The notes beneath the pieces were generated by a model. It had not been told where the DNA came from. It did not search any database and saw nothing but the letters and a program-made list of their open reading frames with translations. A stretch of DNA of 64,000 nt from Escherichia phage T5. Numbering within the stretch: position 1 is the stretch's first letter; the number at the start of each line of letters is the position of its first letter. Shown here piece by piece: positions 18,041-59,711 of this stretch. The translations under genes were made by a program, and so were the position numbers. The DNA is taken from the sequence record AY692264.1; one strand, written 5' to 3'.

Positions 18041-18469
18041 ATGTTTAATAATGTATTCTCTAAAGAAGCTAATCCAATATTGGTTAATTTTTGGCGTACT
18101 CTTCCAGCCAACCTGTACAATGAGGCTATTAATGCTCTAAAAATATGGTGTGAGAATAATGAAATCTCCTTTGCTTTTAAAGGCGAGATTGAAGAAGCTC
18201 CCTGTATTGGTTTAATTGTGCAGGTAGAGGATGGTCTTGAAGAGATTGTCGGCTGGAAAGAGTTAGATGAAATGGGCTTGGTTTTTGCATTAAACTATAA
18301 GCTGTTTATGCCTAATAAACACCGTATTGTTGTTAACTATAAAACCAGTGAATCTCCTGGCTTTCAAGTTAATGAACATTACGGTTGGTCTTACTCACCG
18401 GAAGAAGTAAATGATGGTATCCAAAAACTTCGTCGTTTTGGTTATCAAATTCCGGGTTTAACTGCCTAA
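18041..18469 (+). CDS. hypothetical protein (142 aa), tandem paralog A
   Basis: AAGGTG RBS; shares PCIG..GW.EL...GL..ALN..LF and C-terminal Y.PGL with 18479..18871. Confidence 0.55.
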   Translation: MFNNVFSKEANPILVNFWRTLPANLYNEAINALKIWCENNEISFAFKGEIEEAPCIGLIVQVEDGLEEIVGWKELDEMGLVFALNYKLFMPNKHRIVVNYKTSESPGFQVNEHYGWSYSPEEVNDGIQKLRRFGYQIPGLTA

Positions 18470-18478
18470 GGAGGCACA

Positions 18479-18871
18479 ATGGAACAAATATATTGGCGTC
18501 AGATTGATCCTAGTTTGGTGAAGTGTGCAGAGAAGCTGCTACAACGTTGGTTGGGGGTAAGACAAGCCTCCTTCACTTTTCCGGAGCAGCAAATAGACGA
18601 TCCCTGTATTGGTGTTTTCCTATCAGGCTACGCTGGGGAATGGGAATTGGATTGGAATGAATTGTCTGCTATGGGTTTAATTGTTGCACTAAATTTCTCT
18701 TTGTTCCATCCACGTGGTTTGGCTATATGTCGTGTGCCTGATGATGGTTGTTCGCCCCATCTTTTACGGGTGGAAGATGATATTTGGGAGTACACTCCAG
18801 ATACTCTCAAAGAAGCTAAAGAACAGTTAAACCGTGTTGGGATCTATGTTCCAGGCCTGAATGATGAATGA
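18479..18871 (+). CDS. hypothetical protein (130 aa), tandem paralog B
   Basis: AAGGAGG RBS; paralogous to 18041..18469. Confidence 0.55.
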   Translation: MEQIYWRQIDPSLVKCAEKLLQRWLGVRQASFTFPEQQIDDPCIGVFLSGYAGEWELDWNELSAMGLIVALNFSLFHPRGLAICRVPDDGCSPHLLRVEDDIWEYTPDTLKEAKEQLNRVGIYVPGLNDE

Positions 18872-18962
18872 TTTTTATTAGCTGAACTCTGATTACCGAG
18901 TCATTTTGGCTCGGTTTTCTCTGTACTCAAAGACACTGATAGCACCATCCGGAAAATTTTAC

Positions 18963-18991
18963 TTGCAGGATGCCCAAAATCTTGATATAAT
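18963..18991 (+). promoter_or_regulatory. sigma70-type promoter with ~490-nt leader
   Basis: TTGCAG-17-TATAAT; next start codon is at 19489. Confidence 0.5.
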
Positions 18992-19488
18992 ATTTATATT
19001 GAATTGAGAGACATTAGTAAAAATTGATTTTGCTAATTTTTCTTGTTTACAATCCGCGATACGGAACAGTTAGGCTGCCCCATTAAGGGTTGTTTTAACT
19101 GTTACTAGTGTTTATATTGCATTAGTTAATATTCAATTAAGTGATCTGTGTACCCTGAATTCGGAAAGGTAAATCCAAACCGTGCATATTTAGCTCGTTA
19201 TATAGGCAGAGTTTTATATGGGGGTGCGAACGAAAAGAGCAGCGAATGGCGGCACGTACAGTAGTCACCTACCAATAGGATAGTGAGGACAAATAGAATC
19301 GGCTTAGCGGCCAATGACCTAGGTTCTATTCTGTATATGAGCGAAGAGAGCACAGCACTGAGATATGATAACTTATTCATATTGTTTGATGATAATTGAT
19401 GTTTACGTAAATAGTAGTAATAGTTGTTCTATTCTTTCTGAATAGTCCTAAAGAAAAGATTTCGATTAACCAACACAGGAGTATTGTT

Positions 19489-22275
19489 GTGTTTTCTATC
19501 CTCCAAGGTCACGCCGGATTTTCTCGTGATTTAGCAACAGGTATTTGGCGAGAAATCAAAGCGGAAGATTATACCTTTGCCAAGCGATTCTCGAAAGAGC
19601 ATCCAGAAGGTAAACCAGCTTCTATGCCCTTCAAATTTGATGTAATAGAAGAGCACGACCCACAAAGCCTTGCCGAAATGTTACCCCTCATGAGACGTTT
19701 AACGTCTGACCCTCATATCGTTGCGGTGCGAGGTCGATGTCTCGCACCTAAAAATAATGTGCGACGTAAGAAAGGTAACTTTAATGTATCTAATCCTAGT
19801 AATATTATTGCTATGGACGTGGATGGTATCCTAGATACCGGTGGGTATGACAAATTTAATCTTGTTGGTATGGCCCGCCACATTATTAAGATGTTGAATA
19901 GTATTAGTGAGGATATGTTTCCTCTTGATGCAGGGTTTATTGCTCATGCATCGTCTTCGGCTGGGCTAAAACCAGGTATCCGAATGCACTTAATGCTAGA
20001 ATCTAACGTCAAGGTAACTCAGGGTCAGCTAAAGTTCTTATTTACATCTATCAACGATAGTAGTAAGCAAAAATTTGGTTTTGATATTGCCGACCTAGCT
20101 TATTATTCATCTGTCCAGCTCCACTATTTTGCCGACCCCTTATTTAGCGATGGTATTGTTGATCCGTTTAAAGCGGAGAGTAAGCCACGTCTGGTGTATG
20201 TTAAAGGTTCGAAAGTAAATTTGCCCAATAATCTGGTTGACTATGAAACAACTAGAGGGGAGTTTAAGGAAGGGTTTTATTCTTTACTTGATCAAATTAA
20301 AGGCAAAAAGATTGCTTCTGATAAAGTAGAAGAAACCATCAGCGAGTTAGAAGAGGCTGATGATGGAGTGTATTTGCGTATTATCCCCAAACTATACCAT
20401 AGAGCATTAGAGGATGGTGTTGATTTTGCATGGCTAGAACGTGAGATTAAACCAGCTTTATCTGAATATATTGCAACTAAAGATAACAGTCGTAATATTC
20501 AAGATTACTTTAATAACGGTCGTAAGCAGGCTCTCAAAGCGTTTGTTAATAATTCTAAACGTGAGATTCCATTAAATCTGAAAGGTGTTCCACTTAAGAA
20601 ATTAGAAGTGGATTCTCCACCAGAAGTTCCATACCTGAAGATTAACATTGTGCCCCCAAAAGGCCATATAACATTTGTTAAGGCAAGTCTTGGTACTGGT
20701 AAAACTACGGCAGTAACTAAATGGCTGGACGCAGGTGTTCTTCCAGGCAACTTTTTAGCAGTTACAAATACTAGAGCACTGGTATCTTCAAATGCCAAGA
20801 AATTTAGTGCAGGACAATACGATAAGTCTGTAGATATGCTCAACTTTAAACGTGGAGCTATCGATCGTATGTCCACAACTATTCACTCTTTGCATAAGTT
20901 CAAAAGTTTTATTGGGCAAATAGACACCATTTTTATTGATGAATGTGACGCTGTAATGAATGACCTATTATTCGCCCCTGTTGTTAAACAACGTCGCGAG
21001 TGTATTCAAGTTCTACGTGACATCCTTATGACAGCTAAGACTGTAATCTTATCCGATGGTGATATTAGTGCTGAGACGATTGAAGCATATGGTTCTCTAA
21101 TTGATTTTGATAAACCAGTAGCATTTTATAATCATCACCGTAAAATGCTGTCAAAAGCACACGCTTATGAGTTTCCTGATGAATCCAGTATTTGGGTTGC
21201 ACTTCAGACTTCTCTAGAGATGGGTGAGAAATCTATTCTAGTATCTGATTGTGGCCCGGATGAGCTGAATGAGAAGGGTATGGCACTGCGTCGTAATACG
21301 GGTGCGTTAGTTAAGGAAATCCATTCAAACTCCACCTCAGATGTGGATATTCGACGTATTCTGGATTATACAACTAATGAGCTAATTGATCAACAAATTG
21401 ATTGCTTATTATGTAGTCCATCCGTAACGAGTGGCGTTGACTTTAACTATTTCGATAATGTGTTTGTTATTACTAGAACCAGTAATCAAGCGCCAAACAT
21501 GCGTTTCCAAGCAATCAGGCGCGACCGTGGTGCCCAGAACATCTATTATTTTATTGATAAATCTACGAGTGGATTCTCTGCAGGTTCTGAGCAATATAAT
21601 ATTGATGAAGGTTGGCTGGAGTTAGCACAGCAATTATACGCACGTCGTAGAGAGCTGGAATCTAGAAACTATACTAGTACCTTACGTTATTATTTGCTTG
21701 ATCAGGGTGCAACTATTGATATTTTCAGCGAAAGCTGGGGAACTATTGAAGGTGCTGGTAAAGAATATACAGAAGAGCGAATCAAAGCTATTCTGCATTC
21801 AACTCCAGATTATTGTGCCCCACGTCATGCAGATGCATATGAAGCTAAACTACTTCTTGTTCGCTATTATCATCTTGAGTCTATTAAAGATGTAACAGTT
21901 GAGCATGTCGAACAATATATCAAAGATAAACCGAATGATCGAGCTGCATTCTTCCATAAGATGCACGAGATGTTCTGGGAAGATATTAAGAAGTGTTCAA
22001 ATGTGACCATTAAACCATTCATAGAGGCTCTGAAAGGTAAGAAGAAAGACTTCTTCCTTAAAACAGGTCAGAGTGCCAACCCAAAATATGCTAGAATGTA
22101 TCTTGGTATGATGGGTATTGGTAAGGATATGAACACTGAAAATATTGTAGACTGGTACAGAACCTATTGTAAAATCGAGTGTATGCCAATTCCTTTCAAA
22201 TTCATGACAGAGGAAGAGAGGGCTATGGCAGAAGAAGTAATGTCCGAACTTGGAGCAACTAATGAAGATGCATAA
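19489..22275 (+). CDS. UL9-like SF2 helicase / putative replication origin-binding protein
   Basis: 928 aa; GTG start with AGGAG RBS; Walker A SLGTGKTT, motif II IDECD, further SF2 motifs. Confidence 0.65.
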   Translation: MFSILQGHAGFSRDLATGIWREIKAEDYTFAKRFSKEHPEGKPASMPFKFDVIEEHDPQSLAEMLPLMRRLTSDPHIVAVRGRCLAPKNNVRRKKGNFNVSNPSNIIAMDVDGILDTGGYDKFNLVGMARHIIKMLNSISEDMFPLDAGFIAHASSSAGLKPGIRMHLMLESNVKVTQGQLKFLFTSINDSSKQKFGFDIADLAYYSSVQLHYFADPLFSDGIVDPFKAESKPRLVYVKGSKVNLPNNLVDYETTRGEFKEGFYSLLDQIKGKKIASDKVEETISELEEADDGVYLRIIPKLYHRALEDGVDFAWLEREIKPALSEYIATKDNSRNIQDYFNNGRKQALKAFVNNSKREIPLNLKGVPLKKLEVDSPPEVPYLKINIVPPKGHITFVKASLGTGKTTAVTKWLDAGVLPGNFLAVTNTRALVSSNAKKFSAGQYDKSVDMLNFKRGAIDRMSTTIHSLHKFKSFIGQIDTIFIDECDAVMNDLLFAPVVKQRRECIQVLRDILMTAKTVILSDGDISAETIEAYGSLIDFDKPVAFYNHHRKMLSKAHAYEFPDESSIWVALQTSLEMGEKSILVSDCGPDELNEKGMALRRNTGALVKEIHSNSTSDVDIRRILDYTTNELIDQQIDCLLCSPSVTSGVDFNYFDNVFVITRTSNQAPNMRFQAIRRDRGAQNIYYFIDKSTSGFSAGSEQYNIDEGWLELAQQLYARRRELESRNYTSTLRYYLLDQGATIDIFSESWGTIEGAGKEYTEERIKAILHSTPDYCAPRHADAYEAKLLLVRYYHLESIKDVTVEHVEQYIKDKPNDRAAFFHKMHEMFWEDIKKCSNVTIKPFIEALKGKKKDFFLKTGQSANPKYARMYLGMMGIGKDMNTENIVDWYRTYCKIECMPIPFKFMTEEERAMAEEVMSELGATNEDA

Positions 22276-22780
22276 ACCAATGCCTCCTATGGCATTTATC
22301 CTAGAAAAGCTTAGGTATGACGAAAGTACCGGGGACTTAATTTGGTTATCTGGCCCAAGGAAGGGAAAGGTGGCGGGCTCCAAAATGAAAACTGGAAGAC
22401 AGTTAGAGTTTACGATAAATGGGGAGCGGACAGCTTACTTAGCCCATAGAATAATCTGGTTTATAAAGACAGGCGAAGATCCTGGGGATAAAACTATCGA
22501 CCACAAAGACGGTGATAGTTTAAACAACTTGTGGGATAATTTACGTAAGGCTACCTATTCCGAAAATGGAAAGAATAAGAAGTGTTCTACTAATTCTACC
22601 GGATTCACTGGAGTTGTAAAACGAGGTAATAGATATATGGCCTACGCTTACTGCGAGGGAAAGCAGCATATTTTTGGTAGACGAGATACCCCGGAAGAAG
22701 CCCATCAGCTATACCTTAGGGGAGTTAAAGAACTGTTTGGTGAATTTAATCCCTCGGAGAGATATGACAGTGAAGAATAA
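22262..22780 (+). CDS. HNH homing endonuclease
   Basis: IDHKDGDSLNNLWDNLRKAT HNH motif; ATG with GGAG RBS (track TTG start at 22250). Confidence 0.8.
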   Translation: MKMHKPMPPMAFILEKLRYDESTGDLIWLSGPRKGKVAGSKMKTGRQLEFTINGERTAYLAHRIIWFIKTGEDPGDKTIDHKDGDSLNNLWDNLRKATYSENGKNKKCSTNSTGFTGVVKRGNRYMAYAYCEGKQHIFGRRDTPEEAHQLYLRGVKELFGEFNPSERYDSEE

Positions 22781-27262: not shown

Positions 27263-28022
27263 ACTGAACTGGAACGTAGAAGGTGTAACCGAGTCTCTGA
27301 AAGCAAAAGCCACTGCTCTGGGTGTTGATGTAATCTCTCAAGAACAAGTAGCTGCTATCGCTGCTGAACTGGCTGCTGAAACTGGCAAAGACGTTACCGC
27401 TCGCTCTGTTGGCTCTAAGCTGCGTAAAGAAGGTTTCGAAGTACAGAAAGCTAACGAAGTACAGAAATCCCCGTGGACTCCTGAGCAGGAAGCTGAACTG
27501 GTTGATTTCCTGAACGCTCATGCTGGTCAGTATACTTATGCTGAAATCGCTGCTGCTGTAGCTGGTGGTCAATTTGGTGCTAAGCAGGTACAGGGTAAGA
27601 TCCTGAGTCTGGAAATGACAGCATCTGTTAAGCCGACCGAAAAAGCTGCCGCTGTTCGTTCCTTCACTCCGGATGAAGAAACTGACTTTGTTAATCAGGT
27701 TGTTGCTGGTGCTACTATTGAAGCTATCGCTGCTCACTTCGGTCGCAATATTAAGCAGATCCGTGGTAAAGCTCTGAGTCTGCTTCGTGAAGGTCGTATC
27801 GCGGCTATGCCGGTACAGGAAACTTCAAGTGCTAAAACTCGTGAAGATCTGCTAGAAGGTCTGGATCTGGTTAACATGACCGTTGCTGAGATCGCTGAGA
27901 AAACTGGTAAGTCTGAGCGTGGTGTTAAATCTATGCTGTCTCGTCGTGGTCTGGTTGCTAAGGACTATGATGGTGCCGCTAAGCGTGCTAAACTGGATGC
28001 AAAAGCTGCGGCTGCTGAATAA
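27255..28022 (+). CDS. putative DNA-binding protein with three internal repeats
   Basis: 255 aa; three copies of a ~60-aa module ending ..RSVGSKLRKEG / ..IRGKALSLLREG / ..GVKSMLSRRG. Confidence 0.6.
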   Translation: MSKLNWNVEGVTESLKAKATALGVDVISQEQVAAIAAELAAETGKDVTARSVGSKLRKEGFEVQKANEVQKSPWTPEQEAELVDFLNAHAGQYTYAEIAAAVAGGQFGAKQVQGKILSLEMTASVKPTEKAAAVRSFTPDEETDFVNQVVAGATIEAIAAHFGRNIKQIRGKALSLLREGRIAAMPVQETSSAKTREDLLEGLDLVNMTVAEIAEKTGKSERGVKSMLSRRGLVAKDYDGAAKRAKLDAKAAAAE

Positions 28023-58316: not shown

Positions 58317-59711
58317 TTAACCACCTGCTGTTACAGTAATAACTTTAGTGCCTTTAACACCAGAGCCGTCTTTAGCCGTGGCTTCAACAGTTACCGCACC
58401 GGTTTTACTAGCATCTGCTCTTAGTAACCCTGTTGCATTGATAGTAGCTGCATCACCGGCAGTGATAGCCCAAGTAACTTCCTTATTCCTTGCGGAAGAA
58501 GGAGTAACTTCAACACTCATCTGAAGAGTAGCTGATCGATTTAATGTAGTAACATTTCCAGCAGACTTAACAGTAATTGCGGTTACAGCATCAGTAGCAC
58601 CGTCACCATTAACAATTAGATTATTAATAGTTGTTCTAGTATACTTACTAGAGAAGCCTAAGTAACCTTCGTCACCAGCATCCAGATCTGACGGAATAGC
58701 CTTAAATTCTACTGAAGTACCAAGTACATCATCAGTCTCAATAGTAGGAATATTAACGTGCGCCTGTTTAGCTACTAGAATAGCTGCAGGACGTTCATCA
58801 TCATACTCGCCACCAAGTACTAGGGCGATTTCAAAGCGGTTAACTACCTTCAGAGTTTTGATAAGATCTTTATACAGTTCCATAGAACCAAGAGATTTAT
58901 CATTCAGGTAAGCAGTTAATGAACCAGTTAATTCAAAAGCACCAGTAAAGGAACCAATTGGAATAGTAACACGGGACATTACATTAGGTGTTAGGTAAGT
59001 AATGTTGTTGTTAATAGTAAAAGTACCACCGGTAATTGGTATATCATAAGACTTATTGGTATCCATGTCCTTGATCTTCAAGATCGTTAGTTTGTTTTTA
59101 ATGTAAGAACCCTGGATAGTCATATAAGTTTCATCATCAATACCTATTTGATCTGGATCAAATGGTTGCTCATCCAGTGGGATTAGCTGGTTACCATTAC
59201 CAGACCAAGTTACACGACCAATATCTTCAATATCAACGTTAACTTCTGCCTGATTAATCTGACAGGAATCGATATAACTCCACGTTTTATCAGTCAGAAT
59301 GTAAATATGTAGCATTGCTAACTCATGATAGGAATTATCTTTAAAGTTAACCATGAAGTTAGTAGCATTATTATGTGCTCCAGTAGTTCCTTCAAGATTA
59401 ATAGCTCTACCACTAGAAAGTGCATGCCATAACATATAGTCAGGAACAATTTGTTTGCTAGTATTTTTATCTTTATACGGCAGGATATAAGTAGAGAAAC
59501 TCCACTCAGCTGCGTTTAAAGAGTCGTTAAAACGTTTAGAACCACGAGTTGGACGCGGACCAGCTTCATTAACAGTAATATCTGTTGAGTTACTGTCCTG
59601 ACCCCAAGAAATATCATCCTGAACTAGAATCTCTTGCGTGTTGGTCTTATTATGACCAGTCTTAACCGTAGACACGAAGATTCGAGTATTACGTAATAGT
59701 TGTAAAGACAT
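58317..59711 (-). CDS. major tail tube protein (T5 pb6-like) with C-terminal Ig-like domain
   Basis: 464 aa; C-terminal BIG2-like region (VTVEATAKDGSGVKGTKVITVTAGG). Confidence 0.8.
   Translation of the reverse strand: MSLQLLRNTRIFVSTVKTGHNKTNTQEILVQDDISWGQDSNSTDITVNEAGPRPTRGSKRFNDSLNAAEWSFSTYILPYKDKNTSKQIVPDYMLWHALSSGRAINLEGTTGAHNNATNFMVNFKDNSYHELAMLHIYILTDKTWSYIDSCQINQAEVNVDIEDIGRVTWSGNGNQLIPLDEQPFDPDQIGIDDETYMTIQGSYIKNKLTILKIKDMDTNKSYDIPITGGTFTINNNITYLTPNVMSRVTIPIGSFTGAFELTGSLTAYLNDKSLGSMELYKDLIKTLKVVNRFEIALVLGGEYDDERPAAILVAKQAHVNIPTIETDDVLGTSVEFKAIPSDLDAGDEGYLGFSSKYTRTTINNLIVNGDGATDAVTAITVKSAGNVTTLNRSATLQMSVEVTPSSARNKEVTWAITAGDAATINATGLLRADASKTGAVTVEATAKDGSGVKGTKVITVTAGG

Follow-up and report, generated by a model that had tools for sequence, protein, structure and literature searches.

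Comparative sequence evidence for a structured RNA of about 480 nucleotides preceding the replication helicase gene of T5-like phages

RNA II of plasmid ColE1 is a structured pre-primer of ~500 nucleotides (nt) transcribed from a sigma-70 promoter, and the translational operators of T4 genes 32 and 43 are structures of ~30–100 nt that overlap or abut the ribosome-binding site. The ornate RNAs GOLLD, ROOL, OLE and raiA extend over several hundred nt, with many covarying helices, long-range ones included, with few invariant nt and with no function assigned; GOLLD and ROOL are phage-associated (PMC12286853). Here we describe an element of this general kind in phage T5, in the gap of 617 base pairs (bp) that separates T5.107, which encodes a DUF7415 protein, from the helicase gene T5.108. 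The gap occupies positions 18872–19488 of the window, by which we mean the whole 64-kilobase (kb) stretch of T5 DNA analysed, spanning T5 40057–104056 of record AY543070 (window position plus 40056 gives the T5 coordinate), and it corresponds to T5 58928–59544 at 100% identity. Comparison of this gap with its counterparts in T5-like phages provides good support for a conserved structured RNA of ~480 nt that has not been described previously.

We rate this RNA as a new family of a known general kind. It resembles GOLLD, ROOL, OLE and raiA in the properties listed above, and differs from them in having no Rfam match and in belonging to lytic phages of Enterobacteria; unlike free-standing ornate RNA genes near tRNAs, it appears to form the 5' part of a helicase mRNA, and the only tRNAs of the window lie at 84–1657. 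A search with the 4227 models of Rfam 15, among them riboswitches, RNase P, tmRNA, 6S, group I/II introns, GOLLD, ROOL, OLE and HEARO, returned no relevant match in T5 at E ≤ 10, the best hits being snoRNA and miRNA noise (E ≥ 2.3), and nothing reached the gathering score in 11 loci (T5 and ten related ones). In the full-text literature, we found no description of an RNA at this position.

Related loci were gathered through the helicase gene, and a consensus fold was built from 27 distinct RNAs (alignment A4) representing six sequence types, namely T5-type, L014-type, Klebsiella Sugarlandvirus, Pectobacterium DU_PP_V, My1 and the metagenomic contig L207. In this alignment, 89.5% of the predicted-pair cells are paired, compared with 35–47% when the partners are slid by 1–3 columns and 78.5% in 500 shuffles. 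Similarly, 63 of the 115 pairs are changed on both sides, as against 23–33 in the slid and 38.5 ± 3.2 in the shuffled controls, with none of the 500 shuffles reaching 63, and the covariation score of 0.348 compares with 0.08–0.10 (slid) and 0.169 (shuffled). G·U cells far outnumber A·C cells (469 versus 67; G·T/G·U pairs make up 15% of cells), indicating that the transcribed strand is the one that folds, and pairing falls from 89.5% in the sense to 76.3% in the antisense orientation. When folded alone, the T5 sequence gives −124.2 kcal/mol (z = −2.2) and recovers helices P1 and P3–P8, whereas the opposite strand gives −95.1 kcal/mol (z = −1.5). A preliminary description of this region, made from the sequence of the window, had offered a structured RNA as one of several possibilities, and the covariation bears this out strongly.

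The strongest helices of the fold are P6, P5, P4 and P3 (Table 1). P3, P4 and P5 form a rod of ~30 bp that joins ~19096 to ~19426; in P5, eight of the ten pairs are changed on both sides, and the P3 partners of relatives read AACUGUUAC/GUAACAGUU, GGCUUA/UAAGCU, GAUUAUUAUACAG/CUGUAUAAUAAUU and GGUUAUUAUAUAAC/GUUAUAUAAUAACC. All eight pairs of the P6 outer stem (helix 17; 97.7% paired) are changed on both sides, relatives having CAAAUC/GAUUUG, CCACA/UGUGG, GUGCGGG/CCUGCAC or GUGGU/ACCAC at this place, and the P6 inner stem (helix 18) covaries as well, a G-C pair being A-U in My1 and C-G in Proteus phages, around a hexaloop (C-UUAGCG-G, 19303–19310) that is invariant. The P6 hairpin with this cap is the single constant feature of the multi-helix domain at the apex of the fold. 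Nearer to the 5' end, P1 (helix 2) comprises 16 pairs, six of them changed on both sides, and P2 (helix 5) is 98.5% paired with five pairs changed on both sides, for example from A-U to G-C in L207 and from G-C to A-U in the Klebsiella type. At the 3' end, P8 of the Klebsiella type reads CUAUC/GAUAG.

Table 1. Features of the T5.107–T5.108 gap and of the helicase gene, in window coordinates.
Feature	Position	Strand	Sequence or remark
Intrinsic terminator of upstream operon T5.100–T5.107	18895..18915	+	9-bp stem, then T-run; annotated in AY543070 and AY587007
Early sigma-70 promoter T5P32	18963..18991	+	-35 TTGCAG 18963–18968; 17-nt spacer; extended -10 TGaTATAAT 18983–18991
Inferred transcription start and initial transcribed motif	18998..19011	+	start 18998; motif TTGAGAGA 19004–19011, common to P-N25
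P1, 5' hairpin	19006..19044	+	GAGAGA-CAUUAGUAAAA / UUUUGCUAAU-UUUUCUU
P2, irregular hairpin	19055..19087	+	near-invariant UAC.GAAC.GU..GGC.G block; core CAGU/GCUG 19067–19077
P3, long-range helix	19096–19105 with 19417–19426	+	in consensus fold and single-sequence fold
P4, long-range helix	19112–19115, 19119–19127 with 19394–19402, 19407–19410	+	helices 6–8 comprise P3/P4
P5, long-range helix	19140–19151 with 19350–19359	+	helix 9
Variable central domain	19152..19290	+	several short helices (10–16); holds AATAGG 19274 and the 9-mer CGTTCGCAC
P6 hairpin	19293..19329	+	outer stem AUAGAAUC/GGUUCUAU (the AATAGAA/TTCTATT pair); 3-bp inner stem; hexaloop UUAGCG
P7 hairpin	19362..19383	+	GAUAUGA/UCAUAUU; helix 19; loop GUUGCCA-like in other types
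P8 hairpin	19429..19445	+	CUAUUC/GAAUAG; helix 20; carries the last two AATAG copies
Shine-Dalgarno and start codon of helicase gene	19477..19491	+	AGGAG 19477–19481; GTG 19489
T5.108	19489..22275	+	928 amino acids; GTG start at 19489; annotated 'replication origin binding protein'

The setting of the RNA is as constant as its fold. Every T5-like phage has the same layout of terminator, strong promoter, long gene-free stretch and helicase start, and in every Demerecviridae genus examined, a strong promoter is followed by 600–1500 nt without annotated or conserved genes and then by this helicase gene. From the motif block to the start codon, the RNA measures 481–506 nt in all 24 distinct sequences first collected and in every type, and this length holds even in gaps of 700–1250 bp because the additional DNA lies 5' of the promoter. 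In the longest gaps (L012 1876–2500 and L029 1753–2500), and also in L020 and L031, an open reading frame (ORF) of ~150–168 amino acids resembling an HNH homing endonuclease has been inserted 3' of the DUF7415 gene and 5' of the promoter, leaving the RNA length unaltered.

Sequence conservation along the element is uneven. Between the T5 and L014 types, identity is 100% over the promoter and the first 108 nt, 67% over the central 311 nt (19106–19416) and 93% over the last 72 nt, while the helicase DNA is 86% identical; in L014-type phages, the central domain is replaced by unrelated sequence, with the helices retained. Two islands, UAC.GAAC.GU..GGC.G and CUUAGCGG, are fixed in all types. Protein-guided scans of IMG/VR and metagenomes returned almost exclusively known isolates, together with the one new type L207. 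When IMG/VR was scanned with GAACAGTNNGGCTGCNNCAT, the inspected matches outside T5-like phages were all due to chance and lay inside long ORFs, a single abundant and unrelated family of phages accounting for most; L036, L096 and ~80 other loci, on contigs of ~45–83 kb from metagenome 3300045988, carry GAACAGTCTGGCTGCATCAT in an ORF of the opposite strand, again by chance.

The gap contains a single transcription unit, in which an early promoter of the P-N25 class is followed by ~490 nt of folding RNA. The consensus promoter of the preliminary description is annotated in two T5 records, one of which names it T5P32, and its core (ACTTGCA and TATAATAT) is invariant in 14 relatives; it was overlooked by a generic scanner because its -35 element fits at just three of six bases. 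Upstream, a hairpin equivalent to the terminator of the preceding operon is present in all relatives compared. The motif TTGAGAG stands at +7 of T5P32 as it does in the annotated strong promoter P-N25, and transcription probably starts near 18998, since the distance from the motif to the -10 element is the same in both. Three + strand promoters have TATAAT followed by TTGAGAG 12–13 nt on, at 19004, 23048 (P-N25) and 35488, so that the motif seems, from these sequences, to mark a class of T5 early promoters. At 19004, it doubles as the 5' strand of helix P1.

That these ~490 nt lack a convincing coding sequence, as was also proposed, holds on comparison: none is annotated in the gap, and no reading frame is conserved across relatives. 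The open stretches of relatives are short, and the similarities among them are found in every frame and on either strand, which argues for conservation of nucleotides and not of protein. In the T5 and BF23 records examined, annotation within the gap is limited to the terminator and the promoter, while several other records have small hypothetical ORFs called inside it.

The downstream gene, T5.108, matches PF02399 at amino acids 389–533, covering profile positions 46–197 of 820 (the helicase part), and has the Walker A motif SLGTGKTT at amino acids 399–406. Both features have the coordinates reported for the D2 bipolar helicase (Wong et al. 2013; PMC3632103), which identifies T5.108 as that helicase.

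Beyond the six types, phages of Providencia, Proteus and Aeromonas have C-UUAGCG-G within a stem in the non-coding region that precedes the helicase gene, although their helicases share no more than 25–60% identity with that of T5. A covariance model of P6–P7 ranks these sites first or near first in their own loci, but only with E = 0.25–4.2, and deep homology of these regions is suggestive. In Aeromonas phage TS3 (L159 219–1808), the non-coding region before the helicase gene measures 1590 bp and contains two CTTAGCGG motifs and one further TTAGCGG; in the Proteus phages RP7, PM135 and Stubb (L161–L163), an 'empty' region of 820 bp has been flagged for low gene density or given doubtful small ORFs. 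Vibrio phages have a comparable gap of 640–730 nt without the UUAGCG loop, and the diversity retrieved was too small for a test of the fold. Between Vibrio phages Wyman, Pylo and KIT04 and phage Brizo (L156 1205–1916), just the first ~160 nt of the non-coding region are common to all, and this conserved 5' part with a swapped remainder is the pattern also seen between the T5 and L014 types. A segment of the element, AUAGAAUCGGCUUAGCGGCCA, resembles what we take to be the P4 3' strand of RNase P RNA; we rejected this likeness, as its flanks are not conserved, UUAGCG belongs to a hairpin loop according to the covariation, and RNase P models do not score.

The copies of AATAG that had drawn attention to the region are, in the main, strands of these helices. 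The preliminary description had counted at least seven copies of AATAG(A/T) in direct and inverted orientation; seven copies of AATAG are present (19274, 19292, 19326 on the minus strand, 19410, 19419, 19429 on the minus strand, and 19441), but only six fit AATAG(A/T), the one at 19274 being AATAGG. The inverted pair that it had singled out, AATAGAA (19292–19298) and TTCTATT (19324–19330), does have 25 nt between its members, and the AT-rich stretches are likewise real, with G+C fractions of 0.30 (18998–19139) and 0.27 (19360–19488). The seven copies form the densest 200-bp AATAG cluster of the window, the runner-up having five, and none of 200 first-order Markov simulations produced seven copies per 200 bp. 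Six of the seven sit in strands of RNA helices and not in iterons: the P6 outer stem pairs the copy at 19292 with that at 19326, P8 pairs the copy at 19429 with that at 19441, and those at 19410 and 19419 belong to copies of AATAGTAGTAATAGT in the 3' strands of the continuous P3/P4 helix (19394–19426), facing AACUGUUACUAGUGUUUA. The remaining copy, at 19274, falls in the variable domain, mainly in a loop. Because the sequences of relatives differ and the pairing persists, the repeats appear to be a by-product of AU-rich stems in one lineage and not binding sites. The same applies to the 10-nt direct repeat GTTCTATTCT, whose copies are the P6 3' strand and the P8 5' strand; its first copy is missing in the L014 type, and as a direct repeat it is limited to T5-type sequences.

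In T5, we found no terminator-like or promoter-like site on the + strand at 19100–19488, which leads us to infer that the RNA is the 5' leader of the D2 helicase mRNA; the same search between the fold and the helicase start of the L014 type, the Klebsiella type and Providencia also found none. Our preferred reading, to which we give about an even chance, is that this structured leader has a cis role on the helicase message, a preference and not a demonstration. It is favoured by the joining of RNA and message in T5, by an arrangement kept across the family, and by the higher conservation of the segments adjacent to promoter and start codon relative to coding DNA. The RNA would act in cis, at the RNA level, by setting the amount of helicase made. 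This could proceed through control of the stability or processing of the message, with the P3–P5 rod a plausible target for a double-strand RNase, or through a phage or host factor bound at the invariant P6 loop and the P2 block. Like the T4 gene 32 pseudoknot and the gene 43 hairpin, the element would put a folded RNA ahead of a replication gene on its message, where autoregulation would be possible; unlike them, its fold covers ~430 nt and stops 32 nt short of a Shine-Dalgarno sequence that seems to be free.

Several points weigh against a cis-regulatory leader. The usual marks of a cis-regulatory platform are missing: the Shine-Dalgarno sequence lies 32 nt past P8 in an A-rich stretch, no conserved helix hides it in the 27-sequence alignment, and no alternative pairing of the kind used by switches is conserved among types, so that neither a terminator nor a Shine-Dalgarno-hiding helix with an alternative pairing, as in a riboswitch or attenuator, was found. 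Two candidates of this kind were rejected, namely sequestration of the Shine-Dalgarno sequence by UUCUUG, predicted with eight sequences and superseded by P1 with 27, and a switch of AACAGUUA/UAACUGUU against P3, present in the T5 and L014 types only and missing in the Pectobacterium and Klebsiella types. The small number of invariant nt and the exchangeability of half of the element are more readily understood in a scaffold, or in an RNA that binds protein, than in a ligand sensor. In some relatives, moreover, this RNA may form a gene of its own. In Proteus phages, a perfect promoter (TTGACA-N18-TATAAT; L161–L163 1436–1464) stands 66 nt, or by another reckoning ~40 nt, ahead of the helicase start and 3' of the non-coding region; in DU_PP_V and My1, weaker promoter-like sites precede the helicase start; and in Aeromonas TS3, a strong terminator (−21 kcal/mol) is located 89 nt ahead of the start codon. 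The link between the RNA and helicase expression therefore need not be universal. As regards the fold itself, it was derived from the same sequences that scored it, the diversity amounts to only six sequence types, and the controls, good as they are, are not a formal R-scape test; despite these caveats, the gap between the observed covariation and the slid controls is large.

The same promoters and terminator bear on a second explanation, which we consider rather unlikely, that of an independent non-coding RNA acting in trans, cut from the leader or terminated in some genera, and using its invariant loops away from the helicase message, perhaps to act on a protein of host or phage or to serve as an anti-defence decoy, its adjacency to the helicase then reflecting the collinearity of T5-like genomes. 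RNAs that stand alone typically have a closed architecture, here with the ends joined by the ~30-bp rod, and an invariant hairpin loop; the central domain can be exchanged, and the helicase has its own promoter in Proteus phages. A terminator belonging to the RNA, as expected of a free-standing small RNA gene, was found only in TS3 and not in T5, the L014 type, the Klebsiella type or Providencia, and neither did T5, the Klebsiella type or Providencia yield a second promoter. The homology of the regions in the distant genera is itself only suggestive. Nor did we find a target. The lone 10-nt complement of the P6 loop region, GCCGCTAAGC at 27975–27984 in the D5 gene (T5.118), is exact in T5, but the pairing of the loop with GCCGCUAAGC there, kept through G·U in Klebsiella phage IME260, is lost in Proteus phage Stubb, and the complement probably reflects Ala-Lys or Ala-Lys-Arg codons. 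Covariation by itself cannot separate RNA from + strand DNA, and a structure formed by the unwound + strand, such as a primosome or single-strand initiation signal, would leave the same trace. We regard it as extremely improbable, given that pairing across 330 nt is unlikely in briefly unwound DNA, that G·T pairs would make up 15% of cells, and that a conserved strong promoter lies directly 5' and points in the same direction.

A role in replication can be conceived at the level of RNA or of DNA. T5 origins have been placed near the centre of the molecule (bioRxiv 10.1101/866236), and multiple internal bidirectional origins are cited (PMC3632103). The element, at 48.4–48.9% of the 121,750-bp genome, might therefore be an origin-associated RNA, the transcript or its transcription starting T5 DNA replication, either as a pre-primer or R-loop in the manner of ColE1 RNA II and T4 oriF/oriG or as a recruiter of the adjacent helicase, which has been proposed as an initiator (PMC3632103). 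The strong early promoter, the AT-rich flanks (G+C 0.27–0.30) and the family-wide arrangement fit this idea, which we judge to be unlikely all the same. Like RNA II, the T5 RNA is ~500 nt long, comes from a sigma-70 promoter, has a fold under selection and occupies a replication-linked location; unlike RNA II, it continues into a protein-coding gene, and a hybrid-forming G/C segment, an RNase H site and an antisense RNA I promoter were not found in T5. Like T4 oriF/oriG, it combines a phage promoter with AT-rich DNA near replication genes, but its AT-rich parts are covarying RNA helices, and we know of no report that T4 origins need a conserved RNA fold. The GC skew, moreover, shows no feature at the element and turns at ~13.5 kb (~13500) and ~41.5 kb (~41500) of the window, where gene orientation switches, and across relatives we found neither a DNA repeat nor a binding box that is conserved at the element; DnaA boxes were looked for in the region and none was found. 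It is doubtful that the RNA is the missing cis element of the primary T5 origin, priming synthesis or loading the bipolar helicase near the genome centre; were this true, a large lytic phage would use a mechanism like that of ColE1 RNA II. If the element is an origin, it would act through RNA or transcription and not through AATAG iterons.

An iteron-type origin or operator, with AATAG(A/T) as duplex-DNA sites for the helicase or another initiator, had been the leading suggestion of the preliminary description, and comparison does not support it. In common with iteron origins (lambda ori, P1 oriR, plasmid) and herpesvirus oriS, the region has short repeats beside a putative initiator gene, in a local cluster that exceeds chance, and one 9-mer, CGTTCGCAC, that is identical to what we take to be the core of the herpesvirus UL9 box; this exact copy (19224–19232, minus strand), inside the fold, is the only one in 64 kb. 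The repeat unit is, however, just 5–6 nt, in mixed orientation and with start-to-start spacings of 18, 34, 84, 9, 10 and 12 nt, and we found no set of at least three regularly spaced sites of ~10–22 bp in regular orientation. Alignment across T5-like genomes shows that the repeats are not conserved, unlike those of known iteron origins and oriS in being short and irregular and in covarying as stems: the L014 type lacks five of the seven copies despite a helicase 92–93% identical, and in the Klebsiella and Pectobacterium types every copy differs, the pairing partners having changed to compensate. A UL9-type origin was rejected on the ground that there is one box, not at least two in inverted orientation, and that it is missing outside T5-type sequences, a restriction which suggests that the copy is probably a coincidence; a UL9-type initiator was rejected because the Pfam match, confined to the helicase part of the herpes origin-binding-protein profile, does not include its C-terminal DNA-binding part. 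Taken as DNA sites, the AATAG copies make a very improbable origin or operator.

Two features of the neighbouring genes may be mentioned. Just 5' of the element, T5.106 (18041–18469) and T5.107 (18479–18871) are tandem paralogues with ~32% identity (tblastn), and at the other side hegI, an HNH endonuclease gene (Pfam HNH_3; 22250–22780), overlaps the 3' end of the helicase gene.

Phage T5 is a classic model, public total RNA-seq exists for it (PMC12483538), and T5-like phages are frequent in phage-therapy and food-safety collections. For their annotation, the present fold offers a correction, as the gap is left empty in most records or is given spurious "hypothetical proteins", and several records put small ORFs or a promoter within the fold. 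At ~480 nt and with its more than 60 covarying pairs, a conserved RNA of this kind would rank among the larger structured RNA elements known from lytic coliphages. It heads the replication gene cluster, near the origins mapped by electron microscopy in the 1970s, and this location makes it a concrete and mutable candidate for a part in both the start of T5 replication and the level of helicase synthesis.

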